From a virus: a DNA stretch of 64,000 bases. How positions within the stretch are numbered: the first letter of the stretch is position 1; every line of letters starts with the position of its first letter. The DNA lies in IMG/VR virus record IMGVR_UViG_3300045988_105168, positions 50,766-114,765 of that record; one strand, written 5' to 3'. Shown in pieces: positions 7,343 to 64,000 of this stretch. Below the pieces are notes generated by a model. The model was not told where the DNA came from, searched no databases, and was given only the letters and a program-made list of their open reading frames with translations. A program made the position numbers and the translations under genes.

Positions 7343-8440
7343 TTATGCTAATTCAATAACACCTGCTAATGCAGAACTAATAGCACCTACACCATAAGAT
7401 TTGTATAATGTAGCTGTTTGTTGTAAGTTAGCATTTGCATAGTTACCTTCAACATTAGATAATGTAGAACCTTCAACGAATACTTTAACCATTTTATCAG
7501 TACCTGGGCAGATTACATAAATTTTGCTGTCATCTAATTTAACTGCAAATTCAGTTGTATAGTCTGCAACTTGTTCTAATTCAACAGTTGAGATACCCAT
7601 AAAGTCTCTCATATAACCAACTTTAACATATTCATCTCCTAATAAGATACGAGAATTAGTTGATGCTGGTAAAATTTTAGATAAAGCTAATTTAGTACCT
7701 AAGAATACTGGTTTAGCTCCACCATTCCAAGCTTGAACTTTTTGAGCTAAAGCGATAGCAGTATCTTGAGAGAAACCTGCAATTCTTAATTGGCTAGCTC
7801 CAGTTGTGTTTGGAAGTGCATTCATAGCAGCTGCAAAAGCATCGTAAATATCATATTTCATTTGAGTTTCCATAGATAATACTGCTTTAGCAACGAATTC
7901 AGCTAAAGAATAAGTTCCTTTTAATACATCATATAAAGATACTCCAACTGTAATTCCGTGAGCTTCAGGAACGATAGTTTTTTCTCCTTTGAATTGACGA
8001 GTGATGTCATAAGTTCTACGATTTCTTCCACCTTTTGAAACGATGAATAAATCTCTTGGTTTAAGTTCAACTTTTAAGCTGTCTCCCCAACCACCATTTT
8101 TGATTTCAGCAATCATTCCTAAATCTTTAATTAAAGCATCTGGGATGATTAAGTCAGTTAACATACCAACAACAGCGAAGGCTGCTTCTTTAACGTCACT
8201 GAAATTGCAGTATTGAGCTAAATCAGCACAATCTGATTGTTTCTTACCTGATAATCTTTCGATTTCATCAGAGAAGAATGTTAACATTTTTTCATTCATT
8301 TCAGAAAAACTAACACCATTGGCATTTTGAGTTTTTCCTTCTTTATATAAGCTGTAGTATTCTACAAAGTTTGTGTATCCTTCTTTTCTTTCAGCACTAT
8401 CTGCTGTAAAAGCTAAGACACTATTTGGTAATTTTGCCAT
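7343..8440 (-). CDS. major capsid protein (by position and expression signals)
   Basis: 365 aa. Consensus SD AAAGAGGAGGAAA, own upstream motif and own terminator. Follows the scaffold-like gene and lies downstream of portal/terminase. No family motif verified. Confidence 0.65.
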   Translation of the reverse strand: MAKLPNSVLAFTADSAERKEGYTNFVEYYSLYKEGKTQNANGVSFSEMNEKMLTFFSDEIERLSGKKQSDCADLAQYCNFSDVKEAAFAVVGMLTDLIIPDALIKDLGMIAEIKNGGWGDSLKVELKPRDLFIVSKGGRNRRTYDITRQFKGEKTIVPEAHGITVGVSLYDVLKGTYSLAEFVAKAVLSMETQMKYDIYDAFAAAMNALPNTTGASQLRIAGFSQDTAIALAQKVQAWNGGAKPVFLGTKLALSKILPASTNSRILLGDEYVKVGYMRDFMGISTVELEQVADYTTEFAVKLDDSKIYVICPGTDKMVKVFVEGSTLSNVEGNYANANLQQTATLYKSYGVGAISSALAGVIELA

Positions 8441-8487
8441 ATTATATTTCCTCCTCTTTCATTTAGTAATTTTGTTTTTTATTATTT

Positions 8488-8501
8488 TTTTATATTAAAC
8501 T
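8488..8501 (-). promoter_or_regulatory. candidate late-promoter motif AGTTTAATATAAAA (copy 2, upstream of the capsid gene)
   Basis: Identical 14-mer to 3195-3208. Flanks are also similar (AGAATAGAA-AGTTTAATATAAAA versus AGAAAAT-AGTTTAATATAAAA). Confidence 0.4.
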
Positions 8502-8515
8502 TTCTATTCTTCTAA

Positions 8516-9046
8516 TTAGTTAGCTACACATTCTAATAAGTAAGCAGTAACTCTTTGAGAACCAATATTGTTTGCACTAGCAACAGAGATATAAGTAGTT
8601 TCAACAACTTTGAAGCTTAATCCTTCAACAGCAGCAGCAGCGAATGATAATTTGTTGCTTCCAGCAGTTGCAACAGCGTAAGCAGCAGCTTCTCCTGTGA
8701 TACCATCAGCAGAAATTAATACTAAATCTCCTACTTGTGGTTTAAATCCACTAAATACAACTCCAGCAGTATTAGTGAATGCTCTTGGGTCTAAAGTACC
8801 AACTTTGAATTGGTTTCCTAATCCATCAGTTAATACAACATCTTCTGGACTATAAGCCATCCATAAACCAGTTAATTCTGCTGGTGCAGTTGCTTCATAT
8901 ACTTGACTTTCATTAGCATTTGCTGAAAGTTCTCCTTTTCCAAATACGTTTCCATTATCTAAATCTACTTCTCCGATGAAACTTCTATTTAAAGCATCAA
9001 CATTTTTAGCAGTAGTTAAAGTTGGAATTAAAATTGATTTTGCCAT
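8516..9046 (-). CDS. abundant head-module protein (decoration- or scaffold-like; function tentative)
   Basis: Its 5' UTR and start (AATGAAAGAGGAGGAAAAATAATATGGCAAA) is nearly identical to that of the capsid gene. Beta-rich, Ala/Gly-rich sequence. Confidence 0.45.
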   Translation of the reverse strand: MAKSILIPTLTTAKNVDALNRSFIGEVDLDNGNVFGKGELSANANESQVYEATAPAELTGLWMAYSPEDVVLTDGLGNQFKVGTLDPRAFTNTAGVVFSGFKPQVGDLVLISADGITGEAAAYAVATAGSNKLSFAAAAVEGLSFKVVETTYISVASANNIGSQRVTAYLLECVAN

Positions 9047-11324: not shown

Positions 11325-12926
11325 TTATATTTTTCCGCCTTTTTCTATATTTGAAGCTTTGGCTCTCGTCTTAGCTCCACTATCTGTTAAGTCGGCGTCA
11401 TCTTTTGCTGGTCTTCCAGCGCCGTCTGGAGACATAGTATTAACGTTAAGCATCATCATTAACTTATCTGTAAATCCTGTTGCTTGCGCCTCTTCTAATT
11501 CTCTCTCTAGTTCAATTTTATTTAAACCTAAAGATGATGCAATTTTGTTAGGTAAAACAACACCTTTATCAGCATAAGTAAATGCTTCTGTTTGACGTCT
11601 ACTTCTATCAAACTGGTCATTACATCCGACAAATCTAAATTTCCATTTAAATTTCTTTGTTCTTCTATTGATGTTATATTCTAAGAAGTCCTCGAATTGT
11701 GGATATATAGACTCTGCTAATAGTTCATCTAAATTTAAAGATAATTGAGTTTCGATGGCGTTTTGATTTTCATCTGTTGAGAAAATAACTTTACCACCAC
11801 TTAATAAAGAACTTGTAATAGCCATAAAGTTTTTATAAGTATCTTTATCTGTATTTTCAAACTCAACACCTTTAATATCTTCTGTTGGTAATGCTAATAC
11901 TTTGATAGCATTTTCAATACCTTGTGTTGCTAAACCAATAAACTTACCTAATACATCTGCATCAATAGCTAATTGATTTGCTACACTTGAAGATTTCTTT
12001 TCTTTTAAATATGGAACTGAACTGACTAATAATTTTCTAGCAGCAGCCATACTTTGGTCAACTTGCAATCTTCTCATTACTGGTACTATTGCCATTTCTG
12101 GTAACATTCCACTAAAGAATGGTACTTGTAATGAATGTTTTGGGTTAAATTTAAAACACCAAAAGCCATTTTCAGGAGATGTTTGTACCCATTGTGCAAA
12201 TTTTCCAGTTCTATCATTTAATTTGTTACTTGGTCTATATTTGTTAGTATCACCATTGAATACTTCAAGATATTTCTTTTTTAACCAATCTGGATAACAA
12301 TCTAAATCAACCACACCTTGTAAAAAATAATTCATATCTATATCATATAATAGACCGTATTCAAATTTACCAGTAACCTTAGCGTATTTCCAAGGCCATT
12401 GTTGTAAAACACTTTTGGTTTCAAATTCTCTAAAGATACCATAATATGTTTCTTCCATTAATAAGTTCCATAGCACCTCTTTAAATTGCGCTCTGTAATT
12501 AAACTTATCTAAGAAGTCAGCCACTATCTTATAATCATTTTTATATTTATTACTCTTATAATCTTCTGGTGTGGCATTTATACAAGTCATCTCTAAATCA
12601 AAAGCAGGTAAATTTGCGATATATTCTAAATTACGCTTATACATTAGACTGCTAAAATAATAAGACTGACTGTATGACACTAATTGACTTTCATTATTAG
12701 AAGGATTTTTTAAAGCATCTTCGATACCTTGTCTATCAGGTACTATTGTAGATACATTTAAATTTTTCATTAATGTATTTTGTGTCATTGGACTAAATAC
12801 ACCGTCATTATATCCTTTAGCGAACTCTAACACATCAAATGCTTTTTGTACCGCTTCTAAAGTTTCAACAACTTCTTCTTCGGTTAGCTTTACTTGTTCG
12901 TCTTTCATAATACACCTGCCTTTCAT
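11325..12926 (-). CDS. portal protein (by size and position)
   Basis: 533 aa, immediately downstream of the large terminase. Alternative start at ATG 12908 (AGGTG SD). Confidence 0.6.
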   Translation of the reverse strand: MKGRCIMKDEQVKLTEEEVVETLEAVQKAFDVLEFAKGYNDGVFSPMTQNTLMKNLNVSTIVPDRQGIEDALKNPSNNESQLVSYSQSYYFSSLMYKRNLEYIANLPAFDLEMTCINATPEDYKSNKYKNDYKIVADFLDKFNYRAQFKEVLWNLLMEETYYGIFREFETKSVLQQWPWKYAKVTGKFEYGLLYDIDMNYFLQGVVDLDCYPDWLKKKYLEVFNGDTNKYRPSNKLNDRTGKFAQWVQTSPENGFWCFKFNPKHSLQVPFFSGMLPEMAIVPVMRRLQVDQSMAAARKLLVSSVPYLKEKKSSSVANQLAIDADVLGKFIGLATQGIENAIKVLALPTEDIKGVEFENTDKDTYKNFMAITSSLLSGGKVIFSTDENQNAIETQLSLNLDELLAESIYPQFEDFLEYNINRRTKKFKWKFRFVGCNDQFDRSRRQTEAFTYADKGVVLPNKIASSLGLNKIELERELEEAQATGFTDKLMMMLNVNTMSPDGAGRPAKDDADLTDSGAKTRAKASNIEKGGKI

Positions 12927-14686
12927 TAATATATATAACCTACTAAATATTTTAATGCGTCCACATCGGCACGTCCTATATCGGCTTTACCTTGTTTCTC
13001 ATATTCAAAAACAACAGATAAACCATACATTAAAGAAGTGGCGCGGTCACGCTTTGCGGATTTAACTATACGGTCATATAATATTTGACCATTTAATCCG
13101 AAATCTCTTTTTATATTACTAAGCTCCTGCATTAAATTATCGTGCTCTACGTGCATCACCTGTTCTGCCGCATCATACTTACCACTCTTATATAATTCAT
13201 CAGTTTCGTTACTATCTACCAATAGTTTTAAACTCTGGTCTTCAAAACAACTCTTCATATAAGGATAATAAGTGCTATTGAATTCAGCCGTTGCTTGCAC
13301 ACCTCTAATAATAGGTTCAGCATTAGGCAATGTTCTCATAGTTTCTTCATCGTCATCTTGAATTAAAGGTGGATATTCTTCAATATCTCCTTTTTCATTT
13401 CGATAACTCCAAGGCTCTTCTAATAAAGATAAAAGACCCTGTCCAGCACTACGAACGTCGATAACCAATTTCTCTGTATTAGGAAATTGAATATGCAATA
13501 ATTCTCTTAATAATTCCCTTTGTTCTTTTAAACTAGCCCCGTTTAAAGTTTTGGTATACACAACGTGTTTGTCAAATGTACCATTACTTTTTGGGATAAG
13601 TTTAATAACGTGAGTACACGAGTTGTCCGAACCGCTCTTAGTTGATACGGCAACGTCGTGTGTAATTATGTATGAGTATTGTGTTTTTTTAGGCTGTGAT
13701 AATTCACATCTATCTAAAACTCTACACTTATTAGTTAATGAATAAGGATAATAACTATCGTTAGAACTACCAACGAATGTTCCTTCATACTCATACGCAA
13801 ATTTATCTAAAGACATATCTGGACTTTCTTTTTCTAGTTCAATTTCTTCCATAGAAAATAGTCCAGCGTCTATACCTACTTGATAATCTAAGCTAGCAAC
13901 AAAATAATGTTTGTCACCACTTATCATCGAATGATAGAAGTTTAAAAACTTTTGATATAAGTCGCAAGTCTTTAACCACGCAGATGAAATATAAATCATT
14001 CTACCTTTTTCAATAGGATTTTCTGGGTATCTATCGTGTAAATCGATAGCGTTTTGTCTTGGAGTTTTAATCATCGGTCTAATAACTTCTGTTAAAGTGT
14101 TATCTCTAACAAGTCTGGCCTCGTCCACTAAAACTAATTGAAAACGCCAACCACGAGCATTATCACCTTTTTGGTTAGTACCTAATGTAATTGCCCTAAT
14201 TGAACTACCATTTTTTAGTTTAACTATACAGTCATCGGTACCAGCCTTAATAGAAGCAATCTCTCTTCGGATATTTTCATTCTTAGATAATTCACCTTCT
14301 ATTTTTTGTTTAATAACCATACGTGCTTGATTACCATTTCCAGATACTATACCAATAGCCATACCTGGATATAAAATAGCCATACATATCATAAATACCG
14401 CACATAGCCAAGATTTACCAAGACCACGACAACAAATTAACATTGCATTTGGGTATCTTGCCATAGCTCGCATAATTAACCTTTGAAAAGGGAATAAATT
14501 TATACCTAATATATCAACCGCAAATTTATCAATATAGTATCTATAATAAGATAAGAATTTTGTCCATTCTTCATAATCGATACTCTCCTGATTAATTGGG
14601 TCGTAACTTAATGGGTTGTCAGTGTTGTTATTACTCCAATCTTGTTCTGCTCGTCTTTTTTTACTGAAGTTTTTATATGATGCCAT
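12926..14686 (-). CDS. terL: terminase large subunit
   Basis: Walker A-like CCRGLGKSW, Walker B FQLVLVDEA, C-terminal nuclease-type acidic motif (ITHDVAVS). 586 aa, followed by the portal gene. Confidence 0.85.
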   Translation of the reverse strand: MASYKNFSKKRRAEQDWSNNNTDNPLSYDPINQESIDYEEWTKFLSYYRYYIDKFAVDILGINLFPFQRLIMRAMARYPNAMLICCRGLGKSWLCAVFMICMAILYPGMAIGIVSGNGNQARMVIKQKIEGELSKNENIRREIASIKAGTDDCIVKLKNGSSIRAITLGTNQKGDNARGWRFQLVLVDEARLVRDNTLTEVIRPMIKTPRQNAIDLHDRYPENPIEKGRMIYISSAWLKTCDLYQKFLNFYHSMISGDKHYFVASLDYQVGIDAGLFSMEEIELEKESPDMSLDKFAYEYEGTFVGSSNDSYYPYSLTNKCRVLDRCELSQPKKTQYSYIITHDVAVSTKSGSDNSCTHVIKLIPKSNGTFDKHVVYTKTLNGASLKEQRELLRELLHIQFPNTEKLVIDVRSAGQGLLSLLEEPWSYRNEKGDIEEYPPLIQDDDEETMRTLPNAEPIIRGVQATAEFNSTYYPYMKSCFEDQSLKLLVDSNETDELYKSGKYDAAEQVMHVEHDNLMQELSNIKRDFGLNGQILYDRIVKSAKRDRATSLMYGLSVVFEYEKQGKADIGRADVDALKYLVGYIY

Positions 14687-15525
14687 TATAAACTCCTCTC
14701 GATGTTAGAAAATTGTTTCAATAATTTGTCATACATATCTTCATCTGTTGGAATATGCTCTGGAACCCAGTTATGTTTTTCAACAGCATCAAATACTCTA
14801 CCAAAACAACCTAAAGCAACATCATTTGCTCCACGTTGACTTTCTGCGAATTGGGCAGATTTTGACAACATATCGAATAACTTAGTAGCTTTTTCATAAG
14901 CTACATCAGAGCCTTCTTCGTTTTTAAGCATTCTTTGATATGCTTTCATTTGAGATAAAGACGCCTGTGCTATTTTACGAGCATAGTCCTTATGGTTAGT
15001 AGTGACTATTTTAAAGTCATTTTGTAAACCCATATAATAATCATTCAAATATTTCAAATCTGATTTAGTATATACACCTTGCCAATCATCGTCCCATTTA
15101 GGGGCTTCGTCTATTGCAGTTTGTACTTCTTCACTAATTGTAGCATCTTCGCTTAATTCAAAAATACTATCTGTATATCCTAAACCTTCATATTTTCTTC
15201 TTTGTGTAAAATTTAATATTCTTAAATAATCCCCTAAATAATTGTTACTTTCGGAATTACATACCTCATTCCAAATATCCATTATAAAAGGAGTATCTAA
15301 AACTTTTAAAACATCATATACCGATTGTAAATTATTAACATCAACCATTTTGTTAACACAATCTTTACAATATGGATGGTGTGATACTGTGGCATTACGT
15401 GATTTATAGAAATCATCAAGAGTTAAATGTCTACCCATTTTGTCACAGTCTTTATTTTGGCATATAACTTTTTGTCCTTCGACCTTTTTTATAGGCTTCT
15501 TATATTTAGTAGCCACAATCCTCAC
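14686..15525 (-). CDS. zinc-finger protein, possible terminase small subunit
   Basis: Lies directly upstream of terL and overlaps it. Cys clusters CQNKDCDK...CKDC. Call rests on position only. Confidence 0.35.
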   Translation of the reverse strand: MRIVATKYKKPIKKVEGQKVICQNKDCDKMGRHLTLDDFYKSRNATVSHHPYCKDCVNKMVDVNNLQSVYDVLKVLDTPFIMDIWNEVCNSESNNYLGDYLRILNFTQRRKYEGLGYTDSIFELSEDATISEEVQTAIDEAPKWDDDWQGVYTKSDLKYLNDYYMGLQNDFKIVTTNHKDYARKIAQASLSQMKAYQRMLKNEEGSDVAYEKATKLFDMLSKSAQFAESQRGANDVALGCFGRVFDAVEKHNWVPEHIPTDEDMYDKLLKQFSNIERSL

Positions 15526-15549
15526 CTTTCTTTCATTAAAAAAACTGGA

Positions 15550-16731
15550 TTATTCCAGTTCTATAATATTATAAGACTCAACACCTTTATCTGTACAAAC
15601 ACATACCATTTGAGATGCTTTGCCCGTCAATCTTTTTTCTATGGTATAATCATCACCACTACCAGCTAGACTTCCGCCTCTAATAATCTTAATACCACCT
15701 TCATCAGACATAGCACAAGTATGTAAATGTCCAAAAGTAATTGCATAAGGAAAATATCCTAACATCATAGATAAACTAGCAACACCATTTTTAGAAAAAG
15801 CATCATAGTCTCCGTGAACATTAACATACTTTTTACCTCTTATATCCATTACAGCAAAAGTAGTATCTGGATTATTAGTAATAATATCGATGTTTTTAAC
15901 ATCGTTTAATGCTGCATCCATATACCATATTACTAAATCATCTAAACGCTCATCTTTTAAAGCGTCTTCTTTTTTATCTAAACGTGAGTGGTTACCACTA
16001 ACGCTAGTTACTATTACTCTATTGAAATGATGACTTAATTCATAAATAAATGCAGTAATCAGTTCGCTTGCAAATTTGATTTGTTGAATAACATTTTCTT
16101 GATTAGTAATCGCTATTGATTTATGTATTGAATTGCTTATTAAATCTCCTTGCAAAGAAACATAGCATTTATCAGAATTATTCTTTTTACCAATTTCAAT
16201 AATTTTATTTACATATTGTCCCATTCTTATTTGTGCAATTTTAGTGTTATACTCGCCATTAAAACTCTTAAAAGTTTGGCCAATATGCAAATCACTTAAT
16301 AAAACTAATAAATCATTATCGGCTGTATTATTATCCGAATAATTACTATCTGGAAAATTAATTTTACCGAAATCAGTGATTTTTTGTTCTAATATATCTA
16401 AACGAGTTTCTAAACGAGCGTCATTTCTTAAAGCACGATTATATGCAGTACGTTCGTCATTTAATCTAAAACGTTCTTTGATAATCTCTTGCTTCTTTTG
16501 TTCCATCTTGTTTAGTTGTTCGTTATCGAAGTATTTATCTTTTATAGAGTCAAACACCATCATAAAACTTTGATACATCTTACGATACCAAGACTCATTG
16601 TAATCGTGATGTAATTCTTCATTTAATAGGTTACACACATCCTGCCAAGTACCTATTAAATCTTTATTATCACACACGCGCCATATGTACGCATTTTCAT
16701 CTTCATTTTCTAGCCTTTTAAATGCTTCCAT
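15550..16731 (-). CDS. metallophosphoesterase (calcineurin/Mre11-like fold)
   Basis: Motifs LLSDLHIG (DxH), QGDLISN (GDxx), VSGNHSRL (GNH), VHGDYD, FGHLHT (GHxH). AAAGGAGAG SD. Confidence 0.8.
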   Translation of the reverse strand: MEAFKRLENEDENAYIWRVCDNKDLIGTWQDVCNLLNEELHHDYNESWYRKMYQSFMMVFDSIKDKYFDNEQLNKMEQKKQEIIKERFRLNDERTAYNRALRNDARLETRLDILEQKITDFGKINFPDSNYSDNNTADNDLLVLLSDLHIGQTFKSFNGEYNTKIAQIRMGQYVNKIIEIGKKNNSDKCYVSLQGDLISNSIHKSIAITNQENVIQQIKFASELITAFIYELSHHFNRVIVTSVSGNHSRLDKKEDALKDERLDDLVIWYMDAALNDVKNIDIITNNPDTTFAVMDIRGKKYVNVHGDYDAFSKNGVASLSMMLGYFPYAITFGHLHTCAMSDEGGIKIIRGGSLAGSGDDYTIEKRLTGKASQMVCVCTDKGVESYNIIELE

Positions 16732-16825
16732 ATCTTCTCTCCTTTTTTACTGTGAAATCTTATTTTTCTCTTTCATTAATAATATTTTTGTATCGAACAA
16801 GTGTTTGCCCTGTATTTATAAGGGT

Positions 16826-17611
16826 TTACGAGGTTTGGGTTTTCAAACCTCTCTTCTTTTCCCTTGTTTTTCTTAAATTTTCTTGATATGCACACATTGT
16901 GCAGTATTTTTTTGGTGAACGTGTTTTTTTAATAACTATTCCACATATAGCGCATCTTTTGTATTCTGTAGGCTTTTCGTAAATCATTAATTCGCCTAGT
17001 ACATTTTCATAATTTGAAATCTCAATCGCCACTTCGCCATTGTTTTTTGCGAATGGTATATAAATATAATTATGTGATTTAAAATTATCTATTTTATATA
17101 ACCCTTTATTAAATAATAAATTACACAATCTATATCTATCGGCCACTCTGAGTTTGGATAAACCAGCCAACTTCCATAAATCATTATTATTTTCAACAAC
17201 CATCATAATTTCATTTTTCTTACTATAGAACTGTAAGTGTCTAACTTTACAAGCCCATTTATAATATACCAAATAAATAAATAACAAATTTCTCGCAAGC
17301 TCTTCCTCTATAGCCTCAATAATTTCTAATTCCTCTTTATATATTTCAACCTTAATACCAGTCACAAACTCATACTCGTTTGCTTTTGATATAATTTTAG
17401 AGAATATCATATCTTTATCTCTGTCTGATAAATATTCACCACCAGACATAGGTATATTAGACAATACCTCTTTAATCTCAGAATGAGAATAGTTTAGAGA
17501 TGTTAGATGTCGTACCAAAATACAACGTTCTCGACCTTGTGTTTTTACAGTGCTGTATTTCTTATTAGCTATAATCTCTTCTGCATATTTCTTTTCATCG
17601 AATACTAACAT
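16826..17611 (-). CDS. hypothetical protein with C-terminal zinc ribbon and basic tail
   Basis: CAICG...CTMCAYQENLRKTREKKRG. Overlaps the end of the RNAP gene (ATGA-type coupling). Confidence 0.6.
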   Translation of the reverse strand: MLVFDEKKYAEEIIANKKYSTVKTQGRERCILVRHLTSLNYSHSEIKEVLSNIPMSGGEYLSDRDKDMIFSKIISKANEYEFVTGIKVEIYKEELEIIEAIEEELARNLLFIYLVYYKWACKVRHLQFYSKKNEIMMVVENNNDLWKLAGLSKLRVADRYRLCNLLFNKGLYKIDNFKSHNYIYIPFAKNNGEVAIEISNYENVLGELMIYEKPTEYKRCAICGIVIKKTRSPKKYCTMCAYQENLRKTREKKRGLKTQTS

Positions 17612-20355
17612 CTCTTTACCTCCTCTAAAGAATAATGATGACCTAAATACTCAAATCCATTTTCATCTTCCACAACTACCTGTGATTTGCCATACGGAAT
17701 AATATCTATAATATCATCACCTATAATATCCCAAATACAATCATAAGACCATCCATTACGCTCACATAATACTATTAAGTGGTTAAATAGTTCTTTAAAA
17801 GATGTAAATAATTCTAACATCTCATTTTTATACTCATCACGATTAGCATATAAGACATTTTTTAAAATCTCATTCATATCGTCATCTTGAATACCCTCAT
17901 TGTCTACCAACGCCTCAATACCTTTATATTTACGTTGTGCCTTATACTCTTTATATATTTGTTCTAGTTTTGCCATCTTATCTTCTTCTACTTCTATGTC
18001 TTCTGCAAACTCTGGCAATAAACTTACACAATTAGGTTTGTATTTTATATCAAACTCTACATTCTCTATTTCTTTACATAATAAATTCATAATACAATCT
18101 GTTTCTAAAACAGGAGAATACTTACGATATTTTCTTAATAAATTCATTTCGCCCTCAGTGTGGTCTTTCTTTCGTAATAAAACTTTAATAGGGACTCCAA
18201 AATGAGTTAAACTAATACTATTAAAATTCTTCTCATAATTCTTATAGTCATTCATAAGCGTATTATATAAATAAATAAAGAAATATGGTTTTTTCTTAAC
18301 TACCATCGAATTGTATTTATATTTCTCTGCTTTGGTTATATCATCGTCGTCCTTATTGATATGTACCCAATGCCTCCAAGACTTAGGAAAGTTTGGTGGG
18401 GTTGTTCCTTTGATTTTATCAATCTCAGCCCCTTGTAATTCTCTCAGTAATTTTAATCTTTTCTCAATTTCTTCTTTTTGCTCTACCTGTTTTTCGCCTC
18501 TAAACAAAGGTAACATTGCAAGCATACTTGTAGAGTAGTTTGTAATCTGCCCTACTTTTGTATCAAGTCCTTTAATATCACATCTTACTTGATTTGGTAA
18601 AGTTATCTTTTGTGTAGGCACAGCCTCTTTATCATACATAATAGGGAGTTCATCTCTTTTTGCTCCTTTTAAGAAATAAGGATTGTCTGTTGCCATACAA
18701 ATATCCCCATCAAAATCGGAGTCGGCGTGTTTTACAACACTAATATCATAGATGTTATAAATAATACCGCTATATATATATTTATACCATTTACGCATTT
18801 CCTCAGTATTAGCAAGTTGTTGTACATTAACTTCAGAATAATGTGTCAATGGACTTCTTAACAAACAAACCTCTCCAGTAATATTTCTTTCATTCCAGAA
18901 GTTACCATAAACATAATTCGCTGGCAATAAACCGTCTGGACTTAACCCAAGAGCACTTCGACATTGAGCTACTGGGTCACTAATCATAAATGAATAATTA
19001 CCCTTTACCCAAATACGACCGATTTTTGCTTGGCGTATACTTTCCTTAATAGAATTATAAATCTTTCTTTGAATAAATCCGTCTTTTAACATTTCAGGAT
19101 TTTTAATGATAGCTTTTGTAAATACACTACCACAAGAATTAATAATACTATCAATATTAAGCGCTGGATTTTTTACACCAACATTATATGTTAAAGCATA
19201 TTCAATATTTCCACTACAAATGTTTTTTATCCATTCTGTTGTATACGATACCAAACCAGCAATATCTTCTTTGGTTAAATCTAAAACTTGAATATATTGA
19301 TAATTGGTTAAAACATATTCATCGTCTGCTTCTTTGTTATAACGGGCTACTCCCCATTTTAAATTATATGCTTTGTGATAACTTAAATATCCTTCCCAAG
19401 AAGAATAATATTTCGCCATCTTAAATTGACTCTCAGATAATAAAACGTCAATATCATCAATATTGTATTCTGTACCGTATCTATCTTTAATAGTTAAAAC
19501 CCCGTGTTCTTTAGCATATGCTTTAAAATCAAAAGGAACCAAGTTACCTTTAACAAACGCTGTTCTTACAACAAACGAACAAGGTGTATAATTTAAATGC
19601 ATATCCTCCGCCCAACATTTTGCCATTTCTGGACTTATTAAACCTTGACCATCGGCACTATTTAATTTTATATCTTTATAAATTTGTTCTACTGTATTAC
19701 CATCTTCTGTCTTATTAATCCAGTTTAACTTTTGTTGAGGGATTACAGTATCAAAATCTTTAATGACACACACTCTTGGTTCTCTTACCCATAATACAGA
19801 TGAAAAAGATAAAGCATAATAAGCGGATAATTTTGCTAGATTAATTGTCTTAATCTTTCCGTTAAGACCACACATCAATCTCTCTTGCATATAATCAAAT
19901 AATTCTTCATTGATAAAAGAAACAGTATTTCTTCTCATTTGTCCTGAACCAACCATAAACCTAACATAATGTTTACCATTTAAATCAAAACCATTACGTC
20001 CCAATTCTCTATATTCTTTTTTTGTGACAACTTTTATATTAATAATATCGTCTACAAATAATAAGTCGTCTAATTGTGATTGTAGGTCTTTAATCTGATT
20101 TAAACTATCTGGAGTTGTTGGTTGTTTTCTTATTTCTTTCATTTCTTTACGAATTGATTGAACTTGATTATATAAAGACACGTGGTCTCTATCGTCATTA
20201 TAATACTCCCTAATTTTAGCGAGTACTAAATTATCACCAATAGAAACAACATTCCCGTCTCTTGATGCCTCTTTAAATGAATAATGTGTCATTTTGCCAA
20301 TCTTGTTTGATGGTATCTTATAGATATAATAAGAATTTTGTAAAACCTTTGCCAC
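17605..20355 (-). CDS. single-subunit two-barrel RNA polymerase, YonO / eukaryotic-RdRP-like family
   Basis: Three family hallmarks in the right order: NSADGQGLISPEMA (DGxGxIS), CLLRSPLTHYSEV (RxPxxH) and HADSDFDGDICMATDNPYF (DxDGD metal site, compare beta-prime NADFDGD). 916 aa. Confidence 0.7.
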   Translation of the reverse strand: MAKVLQNSYYIYKIPSNKIGKMTHYSFKEASRDGNVVSIGDNLVLAKIREYYNDDRDHVSLYNQVQSIRKEMKEIRKQPTTPDSLNQIKDLQSQLDDLLFVDDIINIKVVTKKEYRELGRNGFDLNGKHYVRFMVGSGQMRRNTVSFINEELFDYMQERLMCGLNGKIKTINLAKLSAYYALSFSSVLWVREPRVCVIKDFDTVIPQQKLNWINKTEDGNTVEQIYKDIKLNSADGQGLISPEMAKCWAEDMHLNYTPCSFVVRTAFVKGNLVPFDFKAYAKEHGVLTIKDRYGTEYNIDDIDVLLSESQFKMAKYYSSWEGYLSYHKAYNLKWGVARYNKEADDEYVLTNYQYIQVLDLTKEDIAGLVSYTTEWIKNICSGNIEYALTYNVGVKNPALNIDSIINSCGSVFTKAIIKNPEMLKDGFIQRKIYNSIKESIRQAKIGRIWVKGNYSFMISDPVAQCRSALGLSPDGLLPANYVYGNFWNERNITGEVCLLRSPLTHYSEVNVQQLANTEEMRKWYKYIYSGIIYNIYDISVVKHADSDFDGDICMATDNPYFLKGAKRDELPIMYDKEAVPTQKITLPNQVRCDIKGLDTKVGQITNYSTSMLAMLPLFRGEKQVEQKEEIEKRLKLLRELQGAEIDKIKGTTPPNFPKSWRHWVHINKDDDDITKAEKYKYNSMVVKKKPYFFIYLYNTLMNDYKNYEKNFNSISLTHFGVPIKVLLRKKDHTEGEMNLLRKYRKYSPVLETDCIMNLLCKEIENVEFDIKYKPNCVSLLPEFAEDIEVEEDKMAKLEQIYKEYKAQRKYKGIEALVDNEGIQDDDMNEILKNVLYANRDEYKNEMLELFTSFKELFNHLIVLCERNGWSYDCIWDIIGDDIIDIIPYGKSQVVVEDENGFEYLGHHYSLEEVKRC

Positions 20356-20365
20356 ATTATCCCTC

Positions 20366-20920
20366 CTAAACTATTTTTTCTAATAAAACCTCTTTTATTT
20401 GATGTTCTAATGAACCTATACTTGCAGCGGCAATAGTATAATCAAACTCAAAATCATCTAAAGCCACCTCGCTTAAATGTTGTTTTTGCTCTTCTGTTAA
20501 TGAAGAACTATATTGGCTCCAATCTGCGTTTAATCTATTAACCCTAATAGCCATTACTTTATCCCCAAACATTGCTTTTGGATAATATATTTCATTTGGG
20601 AAGCGCGCATCATCGATAATAACAAAATCAACATAATCTTGACATATCTCTACATCTTCGCATATTCTTCCTACGTGAAAGTTTGGCTTATTAAGTTTTT
20701 GTCTAATAATATCAGTACCTAATTGTTGCAATAATTCTCTGCCGCCATTATCTTTTTGACCATTCCAACCGCAATATCTTGTAGCTAAATCTTTTAAGTA
20801 ATAAGCATATCGAGTAATCACAACCTTATACCCTAATTCCTCTAATTGTTTTTTTAAAATCTCAGAGGCAGTAGTTTTTCCGTGCTCTGCTTTGCCACTA
20901 AATAAAATCATTCTTCTCAT
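20366..20920 (-). CDS. P-loop kinase, dNMP-kinase-like
   Basis: Walker A FSGKAEHGKTT and IIDDARFPNE (DxRFxNE-like). Confidence 0.55.
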   Translation of the reverse strand: MRRMILFSGKAEHGKTTASEILKKQLEELGYKVVITRYAYYLKDLATRYCGWNGQKDNGGRELLQQLGTDIIRQKLNKPNFHVGRICEDVEICQDYVDFVIIDDARFPNEIYYPKAMFGDKVMAIRVNRLNADWSQYSSSLTEEQKQHLSEVALDDFEFDYTIAAASIGSLEHQIKEVLLEKIV

Positions 20921-20924
20921 TTTT

Positions 20925-21515
20925 CTATTCTCCTTTTTTACTTAACGTCTTATAATCATATGACGAATAAAACGATAATATGTCATCTATTTCTAGCCAA
21001 GTATTTACGACCAAAATATCTGTATTGTTATAATTAGACTGCCAATTAAAATTATGATTATCTTTGTACAATATTTTAATATCGGCATTTGTGTCTAAAG
21101 CCGCTGTACAATCATCAATTTGAATTCCATTAGTCATATCTACTTGTTTTTTGCTTAAACTATTATTAGTGATGCCTACAAAGCTGACATTACCTGGGAT
21201 ATTTTCTTTTACCCACTGTTCTTTCTTTTTTAAATTCTCCGCTGTCCCTTTTGTAGTAATAATAAATTTTACTTTACCATCGTATTTATTTAAAACTTTT
21301 AAAAAGTCGCTCTTAAATTTTAAATTAGAAAAGAACTCATCACTTTCAAAAATACCTAATTTTTCTTCCTCGGTGATGGGGGCTATAGAAGTATAACCGT
21401 AATCTTCAAGGTCGTCTTCGCTTTTATTTAATCCATACTTGTCATTTAAGATTTCTATAACCTTCTGATTACTCTCGACTATCGTATTATCAAAATCTAC
21501 ATAAACGGTTGTCAC
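20925..21515 (-). CDS. HAD-superfamily 5'(3')-deoxyribonucleotidase-like (NT5C-type)
   Basis: N-terminal VYVDFDNTIV (DxDxT), GTA..K, and DD near the C-terminus. GTG start with AAAGGAGG SD. Confidence 0.65.
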   Translation of the reverse strand: MTTVYVDFDNTIVESNQKVIEILNDKYGLNKSEDDLEDYGYTSIAPITEEEKLGIFESDEFFSNLKFKSDFLKVLNKYDGKVKFIITTKGTAENLKKKEQWVKENIPGNVSFVGITNNSLSKKQVDMTNGIQIDDCTAALDTNADIKILYKDNHNFNWQSNYNNTDILVVNTWLEIDDILSFYSSYDYKTLSKKGE

Positions 21516-21552: not shown

Positions 21553-21581
21553 ATTATAACAAAAAAAAATGAATTTGTCAA
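21553..21581 (-). promoter_or_regulatory. consensus sigmaA-type promoter (TTGACA-17-TGtTATAAT) for the minus-strand block
   Basis: -35 is the reverse complement of 21576-21581. -10 is the reverse complement of 21553-21558. Spacer is 17 nt, with a TG extension. Confidence 0.75.
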
Positions 21582-21588
21582 CAAAGAT

Positions 21589-21617
21589 TTGACAAAAACA
21601 AAGTTATATGATAGAAT
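21589..21617 (+). promoter_or_regulatory. sigmaA-type promoter (TTGACA-17-TGaTAGAAT) for the plus-strand cassette
   Basis: -35 at 21589-21594, -10 at 21612-21617. Back-to-back with the minus-strand promoter. Confidence 0.7.
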
Positions 21618-30459: not shown

Positions 30460-30488
30460 ATGATACCATATTATATTACATATGTCAA
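30460..30488 (-). promoter_or_regulatory. sigmaA-type promoter (TTGACA-17-TGgTATCAT)
   Basis: -35 is the reverse complement of 30483-30488. -10 is the reverse complement of 30460-30465. Confidence 0.7.
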
Positions 30489-30507
30489 TAAAGTTTTCGC
30501 AAAAAGC

Positions 30508-30536
30508 TTGACAGATTTCCTAAATAGTAGTATAGT
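30508..30536 (+). promoter_or_regulatory. sigmaA-type promoter (TTGACA-17-TATAGT)
   Basis: -35 at 30508-30513, -10 at 30531-30536. Divergent from the promoter at 30460-30488. Confidence 0.65.
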
Positions 30537-32727: not shown

Positions 32728-32763
32728 GAGCCGACACGAGCCACGAGCCGAACGAGCCGACAC
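32728..32763. repeat. four tandem GAGCC(N2-5)C units
   Basis: GAGCCGACAC, GAGCCAC, GAGCCGAAC, GAGCCGACAC. Confidence 0.8.
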
Positions 32764-32832
32764 GAACGAATGTTCACACGAACAAGTGTTTGTCAACCAA
32801 AAAAGGTTGACAGACTAACACGAACGAATGTT
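32760..32832. repeat. 15-bp direct repeat ACACGAACGAATGTT (2 copies) flanking an 8-bp-arm palindrome
   Basis: Repeat copies at 32760-32774 and 32818-32832. Palindrome TGTCAACC-AAAAAA-GGTTGACA at 32791-32812. Confidence 0.8.
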
Positions 32833-32844
32833 TGACACGAATAC

Positions 32845-32960
32845 ATAACACGGCATAGAGTTTTTGTGGGGAATTTTGCACGAGAGCATAACACGGCATA
32901 AAAAAGTTGTGGGGGAAATCGGCAGAATATAACACGAATTTAAAAAATCGTGGGGAAATT
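32845..32960. repeat. three ~42-bp direct repeats of the bipartite motif ATAACACG-N13-GTGGGG(G)AA
   Basis: ATAACACG at 32845, 32888 and 32929. GTGGGG at 32866, 32909 and 32950. The internal offset is 21 nt in all three. Lies immediately upstream of P1. Confidence 0.8.
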
Positions 32961-32966
32961 TCAAAA

Positions 32967-32999
32967 TTTTTCTACTATATGCAATTTATATGGTATAAT
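32967..32999 (+). promoter_or_regulatory. phage promoter module P1 (TTCTAC + 18 + TGgTATAAT)
   Basis: TTCTAC at 32970-32975; -10 at 32994-32999. Confidence 0.7.
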
Positions 33000-54031: not shown

Positions 54032-54910
54032 ATGAATATAGAGAAACTTTTACAAGAATTTACCACATACAAGGTTAATGTTGAGGGTAGAAATATTGAT
54101 AGTATCACACTATATATAAAACATATCAAAGAATTTTGTGCCGATATGAATATAGACGAATATAACACATTTATTAATGCAAACGCACAAATAATCAAAG
54201 ATTGGCTCACTATCTTAGTTGACAAAGGTAATGGGGCGACGACTAGAAATAACAAATTAAGTGCAATAAAACAAATCTATTTATTTTTAGAAGACGAAAA
54301 AATGATAGATGTAGACCGAAGAATTGACAAAATTAAATATGCAAAGGCAGTACAAAAAGAAACAAAGTGTGCAGATAGAACTCAAGTTGAGCAATTATTA
54401 CAAGCCACTAATAATCAACGAACTCGTGCTATGATTTCGGTTATACATTCTACGGGTGTTCGTTTTAAAGAATTAATACAAATCACTTGTACTGATATTG
54501 AAAATGGCTTTGCAGTAGTTTTAGGGAAAGGTAATAAGGAAAGAACCATTTGGTTTGACCCCGCTTGTACAAAAATATGTAAAGATTATATTAATGGCAA
54601 AAGGGCAAAAATCATAGAAAAAACTAATATAAAGACAGACTTATTATTTTTAAGTGATGGTGGAAAGATTATTAGACAAAATAGTTTTGATAGAACATTA
54701 AAAACTTTAGGTGTTAAAATAGGTTTATATTGGGGTAATGAAATGTCCCCACACAAAATACGCCACGGGTTTGTTACCGATAGTCTTGACGACGGAATAC
54801 CTATTCAAACCGTTAGGGACGCCGTAGGACACGCAAATATTGCAACCACAAATAGATATGCCCATACCAATAAAAATGCGATTAAGGACGCAATGTTAAG
54901 AGAGAAATAA
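54032..54910 (+). CDS. int: tyrosine recombinase / integrase (XerC/D-like)
   Basis: N-terminal SAM-like core-binding domain. Catalytic set: STGVRFKE (R), GKGNKER (K), HKIRHGF (HxxR), GHANIATTNRYAH (H...Y). Confidence 0.85.
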   Translation: MNIEKLLQEFTTYKVNVEGRNIDSITLYIKHIKEFCADMNIDEYNTFINANAQIIKDWLTILVDKGNGATTRNNKLSAIKQIYLFLEDEKMIDVDRRIDKIKYAKAVQKETKCADRTQVEQLLQATNNQRTRAMISVIHSTGVRFKELIQITCTDIENGFAVVLGKGNKERTIWFDPACTKICKDYINGKRAKIIEKTNIKTDLLFLSDGGKIIRQNSFDRTLKTLGVKIGLYWGNEMSPHKIRHGFVTDSLDDGIPIQTVRDAVGHANIATTNRYAHTNKNAIKDAMLREK

Positions 54911-59245: not shown

Positions 59246-60148
59246 ATGAAACTATTAGCAAGGTATAAAAATGGTAATTATACTGTAACAATTTTTGATG
59301 ATGGAACTAAAATTAGAGAAAACGATTTAGACTTTCTTGATGCCGAATTCCCTGAGTCAATGGATTGTAAAATAACAAATAGATGTCCAATGGGTTGCCC
59401 TATGTGTCACGAGAAATCAACACCAGACGGAGACCACGGAGATATTATGAACGCAGAGTTTGTAAATAAATTGCGTAAAGGTACGGAAATGGCTATTGGG
59501 GGAGGAGCTGTGACTTCTCACCCTGACCTAGTACCATTTTTAAGAAAATTAAAAGAAATAGGTGTGTTGCCTAGTATTACAGTACACCAAAAAGAATTTA
59601 TTGGAAATTATGATTTAATCGATATGTTAGTGAAAGAAAAATTAATTTATGGTTTAGGCGTATCATTTAGTTCGTTTGACGACGAATTTTGGGATAAGGT
59701 AACAAAAGCCAATCCTAATCTAGTAGTTCATTTAATCGCTGGTATACACGGCGGAGATGTATTTAAATATTTTGCAGATAAAAAAGTCAAGATATTGGTA
59801 TTAGGATATAAAGATTTTGGTAGAGGTCATAATTTACTAGAAAAGGCTGGCGGAATTATAAATGCTCAATTAACTTGGTTAAAAAATAATTTACAAGACT
59901 TATTAAGTAAGTATGCTGTCATCTCTTTTGACAATCTAGCTATTGAGCAATTAGATGTTAAAAGTGTATTAACAGACGAGCAATGGAAAGAGTTCTATCA
60001 AGGTAATGACGGTACACATACTATGTATGTTGATTTAGTAAAGAAACAATTTGCTAAAACATCGACTTCAACAGAACGCTACCCATTACTAAGTAATATT
60101 GATGATATGTTTAAAATTATAAAAGGAGATGATAATAATGGCGAATAA
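59246..60148 (+). CDS. radical SAM enzyme (small, 300 aa; subfamily not recognised)
   Basis: C47-x3-C51-x2-C54 (NRCPMGCPMCH; Cys codons span 59384-59407). GGE-like MAIGGGAVTSHP. AGGAGGA SD. Confidence 0.7.
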   Translation: MKLLARYKNGNYTVTIFDDGTKIRENDLDFLDAEFPESMDCKITNRCPMGCPMCHEKSTPDGDHGDIMNAEFVNKLRKGTEMAIGGGAVTSHPDLVPFLRKLKEIGVLPSITVHQKEFIGNYDLIDMLVKEKLIYGLGVSFSSFDDEFWDKVTKANPNLVVHLIAGIHGGDVFKYFADKKVKILVLGYKDFGRGHNLLEKAGGIINAQLTWLKNNLQDLLSKYAVISFDNLAIEQLDVKSVLTDEQWKEFYQGNDGTHTMYVDLVKKQFAKTSTSTERYPLLSNIDDMFKIIKGDDNNGE

Positions 60149-63944: not shown

Positions 63945-64000
63945 AGGGGCGTAGTTCAATGGTAGAATAACGGTCTCCAAAACCGCTGATGTGGGTTCAA
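63945..64000 (+). tRNA. tRNA-Trp (anticodon CCA), 3' part cut by the window end
   Basis: AGGGGCG acceptor, GTTCAATGGTAGAA D-arm, anticodon loop CTCCAAA, and the start of a GTGGGTTCAA T-arm. Closely resembles Bacillus-type tRNA-Trp. Confidence 0.85.

Follow-up and report, generated by a model that had tools for sequence, protein, structure and literature searches.

Gene organization of the locus

The window, by which we mean the whole 64,000-nt stretch of viral DNA that was analyzed, contains a gut-phage gene for a protein of 916 residues. Its open reading frame (ORF) starts with GTG, preceded about 6 nt upstream by the ribosome-binding site AGGAGGG. The gene and its neighbors are arranged as follows.

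21589–21617, plus strand: host-type promoter, TTGACA-17-TAGAAT with TG, divergent and directed towards the opposite gene pair (11/12 match)
21553–21581, minus strand: host sigma-A-type promoter, TTGACA-17-TATAAT with extended −10 TG (12/12 match)
20925–21515, minus strand: NT5C-type 5′(3′)-deoxyribonucleotidase, at the head of the putative operon (Pfam PF06941, E 6.2e-11, above cut-off)
20366–20920, minus strand: deoxynucleoside monophosphate (dNMP) kinase (phrog_139, E 1.2e-22; weak match to Pfam DNMK)
17605–20355, minus strand: YonO-family two-barrel single-subunit RNA polymerase, split subtype, 916 aa, without a zinc ribbon of its own (ORF, Pfam, YonO homology, AF2/Foldseek, RDR2 profile alignment)
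16826–17611, minus strand: conserved polymerase partner, 261 aa (ORF, homology, overlap with the polymerase stop codon)
15550–16731, minus strand: YonJ-like exonuclease or metallophosphoesterase, opening the putative late block (phrog_284, E 1.4e-62; position as SPbeta yonJ)
14686–15525, minus strand: YonG homologue, preceding the terminase gene (blastp to SPbeta YonG, E 3e-13; phrog_3314, E 6e-47)
12926–14686, minus strand: terminase large subunit (phrog_2, E 2.4e-29; Pfam Terminase_6N, E 6e-9)
11325–12926, minus strand: portal protein (phrog_2739, E 1.1e-53)
7343–8440, minus strand: major capsid protein (38% identity, E 5e-74, to the capsid protein annotated in Enterocloster phage PMBT24)

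A sequence-only reading of this DNA had placed the polymerase gene downstream of a consensus host-type promoter, next to nucleotide genes, and upstream of terminase, portal and capsid genes on the same strand. All of these assignments are borne out by the matches above, and the promoter (read from 21581 to 21553) is the sole perfect one between 9 and 24 kb of the window. From its position, it would drive the nucleotidase, the dNMP kinase, the polymerase and the partner as one operon. The polymerase gene heads a same-strand YonJ-YonG-terminase-portal-capsid block, with the gene order of SPbeta.

Family and fold of the polymerase

Three motifs mark the putative active site, and their order along the chain (starting at aa 232, 498 and 544) is the one that had been read from the sequence.

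19633–19662, minus strand: NSADGQGLIS, aa 232–241, beta-like barrel motif with D235 (conservation in relatives and RDR2 alignment)
18829–18864, minus strand: LLRSPLTHYSEV, aa 498–509, start of the beta′-like barrel with R500 and P502 (conservation in relatives)
18673–18726, minus strand: ADSDFDGDICMATDNPYF, aa 544–561, catalytic aspartate triad D547/D549/D551 (conservation and RDR2 alignment)

[quoted passage not shown] Three independent lines of evidence now confirm both family and fold. The Pfam RdRP profile PF05183 scores 64.6 bits (cut-off 23.8; E 9.9e-18), with aa 108–663 covering model positions 51–555 of 582. Homology to SPbeta YonO is directly detectable by blastp (E 4.2e-46, 29% identity, aa 116–611 aligned to YonO aa 127–602) and by tblastn (E 6e-36). 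Finally, the AF2 model (pLDDT 92.9, pTM 0.91) retrieves only RDR2 or QDE-1 among its 21 significant Foldseek matches in the PDB (probability 1.00; E 2.3e-18 to 8.9e-12), so that the structural comparison with QDE-1 suggested earlier assigned no different fold. These matches to QDE-1 (2J7N, 7Y7x) and plant RDR2 (7W82, 7EU1, 7ROZ) extend over 730–950 aligned columns and show the same overall fold, although at 11–14% sequence identity and with TM-scores of only 0.37–0.49. Related clusters of the polymerase number 1,683.

Conservation of individual residues agrees with this assignment. Eight residues are universal to two-barrel enzymes and correspond in QDE-1 to D709, R738, K743, R962, P964, D1007, D1009 and D1011 (PMC2919709). 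Their equivalents here are D235, R264, K269, R500, P502, D547, D549 and D551, and the same eight are found in YonO, whose homologous catalytic core spans about 500 aa. D235 is the counterpart of both QDE-1 D709 and Rpb2 D837; R500 and P502 are the counterparts of R962 and P964. The spacings equal those of QDE-1 (29 residues from D to R and 5 from R to K in the first barrel; 2 from R to P). Among 89 relatives (mean identity 28%), D235, G236, K269, R500, P502 and all three aspartates of the triad show no variation, and R264 is kept in at least 90%. In a profile alignment to maize RDR2, the motifs DG.G.IS, R....KG and D.DGD of the two proteins coincide, the triad falling on GGDLDGD of RDR2; QDE-1 shares the DG.G.IS, R.P and D.DGD motifs as well. 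In YonO, whose RNA synthesis is DNA-templated and processive, the equivalent of the aspartate triad is essential (PMC5467207).

Two other assignments were considered and rejected. The sequence-only reading had included crAss-like virion polymerases in the lineage. That link stands at the level of the superfamily and fails as closer kinship: crAss-like entries in BFVD match the model at E 4e-4 or worse, and no gp66 chain occurs among the significant PDB matches. The phi14:2 gp66-type enzymes are phage-encoded and belong to the two-barrel superfamily, but they are huge, are packaged in the virion and transcribe early genes, whereas the present gene lies behind a host promoter and would be expressed from it after infection. 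A beta or beta′ subunit of a multi-subunit polymerase, which would show homology outside the barrel motifs, for instance in the clamp, the flap (SBHM insert) or the trigger loop, is likewise rejected, as beta′ chains match only at E 0.02 or worse with TM-scores below 0.1 (Foldseek, PDB), and no Pfam match to beta or beta′ was obtained.

The 916-aa protein is best explained as a YonO-family RNA polymerase, presumably DNA-dependent, which carries both double-psi beta-barrels of the cellular active site on a single chain. It is very improbable that it acts instead as an RNA-dependent RNA polymerase, making double-stranded or small RNAs rather than late mRNA. Eukaryotic RNA-dependent enzymes do provide the best Pfam and PDB matches, and the homologues of PMBT24, TR-TP1 and Perkons are labeled "RNA-dependent RNA polymerase" in GenBank. 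However, these labels most likely derive from the name of the Pfam family, and QDE-1 also uses DNA templates, with 7y7r, 7y7s and 7y7t among the PDB matches. Moreover, YonO, the sole characterized member of the phage family, strongly prefers DNA and is needed for late mRNA; it is a strict DNA-dependent RNA polymerase, essential for the phage (PMC5467207). The conserved place of the gene at the head of the late block also fits a transcriptase. QDE-1, a dimer, and RDR2 use RNA or single-stranded DNA as templates in RNA silencing, and have neither a role in phage late-gene expression nor a zinc-ribbon partner.

The partner protein

YonO (839 aa) ends in a zinc ribbon and a basic tail of its own, and no partner ORF accompanies it. 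The present polymerase, which belongs to a different clade, has no CxxC pair in its C-terminus, which ends in EYLGHHYSLEEVKRC, and thus lacks an on-chain ribbon of the YonO type; instead it ends in an extra hairpin (IP..G..EYLG..Y) that YonO does not have. Its ribbon lies on a separate protein of 261 aa, encoded by the next gene and containing about 215 additional residues. This is the small zinc-ribbon/basic protein that had been seen to overlap the 3′ end of the polymerase gene and been proposed as a candidate specificity factor, and indeed its ATG overlaps the polymerase stop codon by 7 nt (ATGTTAG). We infer that its translation is coupled to that of the polymerase.

16892–16954, minus strand: zinc ribbon of the partner, C220, C223, C237 and C240 (hhalign to the YonO C-terminus; cysteines conserved)

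The four cysteines, in the pattern C220-x2-C223...C237-x2-C240 and followed by the basic tail, are invariant in 32 sequences. Ribbon and tail together align to the extreme C-terminus of YonO (aa 795–834; hhalign probability 92%, E 6.6e-7) and to aa 808–851 of the Perkons polymerase. The partner of TR-TP1 is entirely without a zinc ribbon, which indicates that the ribbon is not universally required. The protein is predicted (model pLDDT 92.2) to begin with a helical domain, which is followed by a winged-helix-like part, the C4 zinc ribbon and, at the end, a basic helix. The best Foldseek match has an E value of only 0.12 and is not significant; the list consists mostly of winged-helix DNA binders (ArsR/BigR, Fur/PerR, RepA), and the Pfam matches, to zinc-ribbon and MerR-HTH families, are weak.

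The partner family is conserved over large distances. The BUCT082 partner matches that of c-st with E 1.7e-14 and that of the window, over its full length, with 1.4e-5; hmmsearch finds overlapping partners behind polymerases 27% and 33% identical to ours (E 1e-23 and 3e-28). Every polymerase of the split clade that we examined, down to 27% identity, has a partner, and in nearly every split locus its start overlaps the polymerase stop. In YonO, Perkons and L010–L015, the ribbon and tail are found on the polymerase chain itself. There is also a natural end-to-end fusion of polymerase and partner, P0275 (1,173 aa), which occurs in at least two samples. None of the 23 arrangements checked combined the fused with the split form, and the fused and split polymerases make up two separate clades.

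Given this conservation, the apparent coupling, the homology of the ribbon to the YonO C-terminus, the natural fusion and the exclusivity of the two forms, the partner almost certainly works together with the polymerase. Homology, natural fusions and the phyletic pattern show that the ribbon is retained in the system, with the partner supplying in trans what YonO carries in cis; the two proteins would presumably form a physical complex. An alternative, which we regard as unlikely, is that the partner merely travels with the polymerase gene and serves as an independent DNA-binding regulator (for instance one through which the host polymerase is repressed or activated) or as an accessory of packaging or replication. 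Its weak structural neighbors are indeed stand-alone winged-helix regulators, an operator-like dyad element directly follows its gene and is found again at 32.8 kb, the ribbon is absent in TR-TP1, and YonO is active in elongation assays without an added factor (PMC5467207). Nevertheless, such independence is hard to square with ribbons and tails built into polymerase chains, with a whole-length fusion, with the recurrent start/stop overlap and with the mutual exclusion of fused and split forms in the 23 arrangements.

What a partner acting with the polymerase contributes is the least certain step; most likely, it helps in DNA binding or initiation. The protein is a good candidate for the missing start-site factor. 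It is conceivable, though we put this forward tentatively, that it is a dedicated initiation and promoter-recognition subunit of a minimal two-protein two-barrel machine, of which the ribbon and tail of YonO are a fused remnant. Archaeal TFE and eukaryotic TFIIE-alpha are initiation factors that combine a winged helix with a zinc ribbon. The predicted winged-helix-like domain and C4 ribbon of the partner, alongside a two-barrel polymerase, may be analogous, even though Foldseek and Pfam give no sequence match or significant structural match to these factors. If the partner is such a subunit, this would show where the promoter or DNA-handling function resides that the 2017 study of YonO (Forrest et al. 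2017, PMC5467207) left open, and the simplest known relative of the cellular RNA polymerases would have a sigma- or TFE-like factor. While the polymerase is a member of a known family, the split two-gene form is what is new; we found no description of such a variant of the YonO family in the literature searched.

Proposed transcription of the late block

In SPbeta, yonO occupies the same place, upstream of yonJ, yonG and the terminase and portal genes; experiments showed that YonO transcribes 37 late genes there, from a single start site that lies downstream of yonO (PMC5467207). The yonP-yonO promoter is bound by the master repressor (PMC10516654), which implies that it is read by the host polymerase. 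The logic there is that of a host-transcribed polymerase gene followed by a late operon, and the same logic can be proposed here. The order polymerase, YonJ, YonG, TerL, portal is common to SPbeta, BUCT082, PMBT24, TR-TP1, c-st, Perkons and one metagenome contig. Within the 17-kb late block of the window (1–17.6 kb), we found no strong intergenic host-type promoter. This absence, the consensus host promoter upstream of the polymerase, the SPbeta gene order and the YonO experiment (PMC5467207) all fit a two-step scheme in which the host polymerase makes the phage polymerase, which in turn transcribes the late genes.

In this scheme, host RNA polymerase would read the promoter at 21581–21553 to give one transcript for the deoxynucleotidase, the dNMP kinase, the polymerase and the partner. 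The partner, whose translation would be coupled to the polymerase stop codon, would lend the polymerase its C4 ribbon and basic tail in trans, together with its helical and winged-helix-like part. The polymerase would then transcribe the late block, comprising the genes for the YonJ-like exonuclease, YonG, terminase, portal, capsid and tail. Most likely, the polymerase is what switches on the late genes of the phage. We consider the two-step scheme, combined with joint action of polymerase and partner, to be a probable account of the locus and the best one as a whole.

If SPbeta is taken as a guide, with its one late operon that YonO starts downstream of yonO, the late start probably lies in the 94-nt spacer between the partner and exonuclease genes (16732–16825). 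Two elements stand out in this spacer.

16769–16789, minus strand: block AAAAATATTATTAATGAAAGA, candidate late start region (nearly invariant in relatives)
16793–16809, minus strand: dyad-symmetric element GGCAAAC-N4-GTTCGA (related copies at 32778–32794 and 32820–32836)

The block contains a 20-nt core, AAAATATTATTAATGAAAGA, which is unchanged in 8 relatives save for one variable position near its 3′ end, while the flanking spacer varies. No second copy of the block was found in the window, and comparison with the P_YonO bracket of SPbeta revealed no convincing similarity. We regard the block as a candidate start region for late transcription. The dyad element (6 matches, against 1.05 expected) is kept at this position among relatives, its central N4 varying, and is probably an operator for a dimeric regulator.

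It is also possible, but quite improbable, that the host polymerase reads through from the promoter at 21581 into the late genes, and that the phage polymerase serves another purpose, such as priming replication, making a regulatory non-coding RNA or transcribing only part of the late genes. The stretch from the partner gene to the late block (16826 to 16732) yielded no intrinsic terminator, and a candidate hairpin in the spacer failed the covariation test, which leaves room for such read-through. The presence of nucleotide-metabolism genes in the polymerase operon would also agree with it. On the other hand, deletion of yonO in SPbeta silences exactly those late genes that are syntenic with the present block (PMC5467207), and the gene order is held across very distant relatives. 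One caveat to transcription of the block by the phage polymerase concerns how its start is chosen. BUCT082 has a polymerase of the split type, yet its late-promoter region is 94% identical to that of SPbeta. At least for this pair of phages, this argues against a simple read-out of the promoter by polymerase type or by the partner.

Relatives with the split arrangement

The polymerases of Bacillus phage BUCT082, Enterocloster phage PMBT24, Clostridium phage c-st and Thomasclavelia phage TR-TP1 belong to the same split clade as the present one (23–31% identity over nearly the full length), and these phages have the same downstream partner ORF and the same late-gene order. Several of these four polymerases are annotated as "RNA-dependent RNA polymerase" or "hypothetical". 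In contrast to the present phage, all four keep an HU gene after the partner; compared with SPbeta, the window lacks the HU-like yonN, yonK and the 1.7-kb non-coding spacer. In c-st, a probable group I intron splits the polymerase gene at its DFD|GD motif.

A split YonO-type polymerase

The polymerase in the window clearly belongs to the YonO family. This family is already known, and the polymerase in itself is no surprise. What is new is the split architecture of the locus: a piece that is fused to the polymerase in YonO is carried here by a separate, conserved and co-translated partner protein. We found no description of such an architecture for YonO-type polymerases in the searchable literature. 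To our knowledge, YonO-type enzymes are the smallest relatives of the active site of cellular RNA polymerase, and YonO is the only phage member of the family that has been studied. These enzymes serve as a model for the single-chain ancestor of cellular RNA polymerase. The relevant features are as follows.

21581..21553 (−): host-type promoter
5′ of the polymerase, after this promoter: NT5C nucleotidase gene (PF06941, E 6e-11)
5′ of the polymerase: dNMP kinase gene (phrog_139, E 1e-22)
17605..20355 (−): polymerase, 916 aa, GTG start
16826..17611 (−): partner, 261 aa
16732-16825: 94-nt spacer
After the partner: YonJ-like exonuclease (phrog_284, E 1e-62)
After the exonuclease: YonG homologue (E 3e-13 to YonG)
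After the YonG homologue, in this order: large terminase, portal, capsid and further virion proteins

Identification of the polymerase rests on profiles, homology and structure, three independent lines that agree. The ORF, preceded by an AGGAGGG ribosome-binding site, matches the Pfam RdRP family PF05183 (E 9.9e-18; 64.6 bits, cut-off 23.8; aa 108-663) and PHROG 8308, for which no function is annotated (E 3e-103). Among 50,697 phage records, 43 were matched by tblastn, including SPbeta yonO and its relatives (29% identity, E 6e-36), Bacillus phage BUCT082, Clostridium phage c-st, Enterocloster phages, Thomasclavelia phages and Psychrobacillus phage Perkons; direct blastp against YonO gave E 4e-46. 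A complete HMMER pass over 1.84 billion representative proteins recovered 1,683 clusters of the family at E <= 1e-3, of which 422 reach E <= 1e-30. The window polymerase belongs to a large sister clade of YonO, with hundreds of metagenomic clusters.

An AF2 model, computed from 89 diverse relatives, has a mean pLDDT of 92.9 and a pTM of 0.91. When this model was compared with the PDB by Foldseek, all 21 significant matches were eukaryotic cell-type RdRPs, either RDR2 (maize and Arabidopsis, E 2e-18 to 4e-14) or QDE-1 (E about 1e-13 to 9e-12), in alignments spanning 730-950 columns. Bacterial beta′ chains did not reach significance in the same search (E 0.02 or worse). A phmmer search of PDB sequences returned no match, so that a profile or structure search is needed to see the relationship, and our PDB search found no solved structure of YonO. 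The three motifs picked out by the sequence-only reading are present in the same order: NSADGQGLIS begins at aa 232, LLRSPLTHYSEV at aa 498 and ADSDFDGDICMATDNPYF at aa 544. Eight residues are invariant across two-barrel polymerases, namely D709, R738, K743, R962, P964, D1007, D1009 and D1011 of QDE-1 (Ruprich-Robert and Thuriaux, PMC2919709). Their equivalents here, with matching spacing, are D235, R264, K269, R500, P502, D547, D549 and D551; across 89 relatives of 28% mean identity, all but one of these are invariant, the exception being at least 90% conserved. A profile alignment with maize RDR2 pairs the DG.G.IS, R....KG and D.DGD motifs. The sequence-only reading of this ORF as a YonO/RdRP-like polymerase of the two-barrel lineage is thus supported. 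Its further proposal, kinship with the polymerases of crAss-like virions, fares less well: matches exist, but they are marginal.

In two relatives, c-st and MT835481, the polymerase gene is split exactly between D549 and G550 (DFD|GD). The inserts measure 317 nt in c-st (11672-11988) and 948 nt in MT835481 (2088-3035), with a 229-aa, HTH-containing ORF inside the latter. U is the last base of the upstream exon and G that of the insert, and the c-st insert aligns full-length with the Rfam group I intron model, at a sub-threshold score (25.4 bits, E 1.6e-4). Because about 20 of 150 representative proteins also stop near residue 547, these gene sequences suggest a recurrent intron homing site within the active-site codons. 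The window gene is uninterrupted.

The partner protein

As the sequence-only reading had noted, a small ORF for a zinc-ribbon, basic protein overlaps the 3′ end of the polymerase gene. Its ATG overlaps the polymerase stop (AGATGTTAG) and lies 9 nt downstream of GAGGAGG which, judging from the sequence, is the classic arrangement for translational coupling. The family to which the partner belongs is conserved and unassigned in Pfam; searches of Pfam and PHROG for known domains gave only sub-threshold zinc-ribbon and HTH matches. Members of the family find each other by blastp: BUCT082 matches c-st (E 1.7e-14), the window (E 1.4e-5, full length) and PMBT24 (E 1.2e-4), and TR-TP1 matches c-st (E 1.9e-6). 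A family HMM also matches, along its whole length, the overlapping ORFs downstream of two distant polymerases, one 27% (E 1e-23) and the other 33% (E 3e-28) identical to that of the window. Cysteines C220, C223, C237 and C240 do not vary among 32 sequences; the TR-TP1 partner, checked in all reading frames, has no ribbon. In the AF2 model (pLDDT 92.2), a four-helix N-terminal domain is followed by a helix and beta-hairpin, the ribbon and a long basic helix. No structural neighbour of the model is significant (best E 0.12). Winged-helix DNA-binding proteins dominate the list of neighbours below significance (BigR/ArsR, SqrR, Fur/PerR, RepA, ScpB, ORC), which makes a role for the modelled partner in DNA binding or initiation plausible.

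Where a polymerase has no partner, its extreme C-terminus aligns with the ribbon and basic tail of the partner protein. In SPbeta YonO (839 aa) they match residues 795-834 (hhalign 92%, E 6.6e-7), and in the Perkons polymerase (857 aa) residues 808-851 (86%, E 5.2e-6). The original annotation of c-st had already called CST177 "YonO homolog (C-ter only)". Our survey of the arrangement took in the window, 21 related loci and two more contigs from metagenomes. Eight polymerases (SPbeta, Perkons and loci L010-L015) end in CxxC...CxxC and a basic tail, without a partner ORF. Every intact polymerase lacking this ribbon end has the partner next to it, starting anywhere from 23 nt upstream to 3 nt downstream of the polymerase stop, a count that leaves out MT835481, where the polymerase gene is interrupted. 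These split loci are the window, its contig matches L001-L007 and L009, BUCT082, PMBT24, TR-TP1, L038 and L039. The c-st partner, CST177, overlaps the stop codon of CST178, the downstream half of the interrupted polymerase gene.

One 1,173-aa metagenomic protein, P0275, is a full fusion of polymerase and partner in a single chain, in which residues 921-1172 correspond to the BUCT082 partner (E 1.2e-17). Five contigs encode it, and they come from two samples or more. In a neighbour-joining tree, which carries no bootstrap support, the ribbon-fused clade stands apart from the split clade, and P0275 nests within the latter. We infer that P0275 is a secondary fusion. Taken together, fusion, fission and strict adjacency in these sequences provide strong evidence that polymerase and partner act together. 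In the split clade, then, a piece of the YonO C-terminus is encoded as a co-translated protein of its own, along with an additional domain of DNA-binding appearance. This bears on initiation and promoter finding by YonO-type enzymes, which was left open by Forrest et al. (PMC5467207). The interest of the locus is moderate, and lies in the two-component system rather than in the polymerase.

Layout of the operon and the late programme

YonO is a strict, processive DNA-dependent RNA polymerase that requires its aspartate triad and is needed by the phage; starting downstream of yonO, it transcribes a single operon of 37 late genes (PMC5467207). Because this characterised member is DNA-dependent, the label "RNA-dependent RNA polymerase" given to homologues in GenBank (OQ326496, PMBT24; PQ571309/10, TR-TP1/2; MT325768, Perkons) is probably a misleading mis-annotation, which probably stems from the name of the Pfam family. 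In SPbeta, the master repressor MrpR has a site in the yonP-yonO promoter (PMC10516654), which is thus read by host polymerase and silent in the lysogenic state.

In the window, the promoter at 21581..21553 (−) reads TTGACA-17-TATAAT with an extended -10 TG. Earlier put forward as a consensus host-type promoter, it is the sole 12/12 match within 9-24 kb. Promoter-like sites overall are no commoner there than in shuffled sequence, and it is therefore as a single site that this one stands out. The nucleotidase and kinase genes account for the nucleotide-salvage functions described beside the polymerase, and the gene assignments bear out its position upstream of terminase, portal and capsid. The capsid protein is 38% identical to that of PMBT24 (E 5e-74). 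The same gene order is found in SPbeta, BUCT082, PMBT24, TR-TP1, c-st and Perkons, as well as in one metagenome contig with a polymerase 27% identical to that of the window. In most relatives examined (SPbeta, BUCT082, PMBT24, c-st, TR-TP1, Perkons, L038) an HU-like gene lies just after the polymerase module. Homologues of this gene (yonN) and of yonK, yonP, yonH and yonI are absent from window positions 1-64000.

A scan of the whole window placed strong intergenic host-type promoters at 21.5, 30.5, 39.8, 61.3 and 63.7 kb, and none in the intergenic regions of the 17-kb late block. This layout fits a two-step programme, inferred by analogy with SPbeta, in which host polymerase would make the phage polymerase and the phage polymerase would then make late mRNA. 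A second back-to-back pair of near-consensus promoters, at 30460-30536 (30488..30460 (−), 11/12 with TG; 30508..30536 (+), 11/12), resembles the divergent pair at 21553-21617.

Candidate sites for late initiation

By analogy with SPbeta, late transcription in the window would be expected to start downstream of the polymerase module, in the 94-nt spacer. Within it, a 20-nt core, AAAATATTATTAATGAAAGA, is the same in eight relatives except at one position close to its 3′ end. In the window the whole block, of 21 nt, spans 16769-16789; its flanks vary among relatives. On account of its conservation, we propose this block as a candidate late start region. The window contains no second copy of the 21-mer, which fits a single late start and gives no statistical support.

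Several other elements were considered. Ten bases upstream of TATTAT in the block lies a dyad, GCAAAC-N4-GTTC, that recurs at 32.78 and 32.82 kb (6 matches, 1.05 expected). GCAAAC-N4-GTTCG was rejected as a promoter for the polymerase: it is dyad-symmetric, and in the single paired relative contig (L023/L024) its centre shows no co-variation between the two sites. For the same reasons, the motif is more likely an operator. A stem 3′ of the partner, GAGGTTTG/CAAACCTC at 16830-16851, looked conserved and was considered as a terminator; this was rejected, since RNAalifold does not predict the stem and the pair counts of the stem equal those of shuffled controls. The 9-mer AATGAAAGA has 12 copies in the whole window (1.8 expected), nine of them on the minus strand at 3.9-20.1 kb. 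Since several copies overlap ribosome-binding sites, adjoin start codons on the 5′ side or fall in coding sequence, we set it aside as a promoter; it probably reflects ribosome-binding-site, composition or coding bias.

In SPbeta, published primers bracket the P_YonO start to about 210 nt. The likeness of this bracket to the window is limited to T-W-ATGA-R-R-G, too short to count. BUCT082 has a polymerase and partner of the split type, about 25% identical to YonO, whereas SPbeta YonO is of the fused type; yet the yonN-yonK spacers of the two phages, which include the bracket, are 94% identical (BUCT082 7447-8996, SPbeta 14850-16383). Polymerase type and promoter sequence are therefore not simply matched, and it looks as if the polymerase module was exchanged while the late-promoter region downstream of it stayed the same. 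SPbeta also has a 25-nt direct repeat, TCGRMTAATRKTCATTTATGARGGT, at 14884-14908 and 15041-15065, 157 nt apart. Both copies are kept in BUCT082, and the second lies within the bracket. It is possible that this repeat is a YonO promoter element; we found no mention of it in the literature consulted on SPbeta and YonO.

Other features of the window

A dense repeat cluster occupies 32740-32990 (−), within a non-coding strand-switch region at about 32.5-33.1 kb. It comprises three TTCCCCAC(G/A)A...CCGTGTTATG elements (DnaA-box-like), three copies of CRAACAYTYGTTCG, a run of GGCTCGT-like units and a palindrome, TGTCAACC-TTTTTT-GGTTGACA, and has an exact 14-mer in common with the site at 16793-16809. 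The cluster may serve as an origin of replication, or it may be a group of operators. Three further genes were assigned.

54032-54910 (+): tyrosine recombinase (PF00589, E 3e-32), possibly an integrase or an MrpR-like repressor
60129-60908 (+): transposase-like protein (phrog_10081, E 4e-82)
63945-64000 (+): tRNA gene, cut by the end of the window

Rfam found nothing in the window beyond this truncated tRNA at the 3′ edge. The phage collection holds no near-identical DNA, so the window is not a deposited phage. Its phage, of roughly 110 kb, is common in gut metagenomes. Near-identical contigs (L001-L009) sit in MAGs labelled Candidatus Coprovivens, Proteobacteria, Clostridia, Bacilli and Methanobrevibacter; they are evidently phage contigs that have been mis-binned. 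The recurring "Bacilli" labels are a hint, and the sole clue, to the host.
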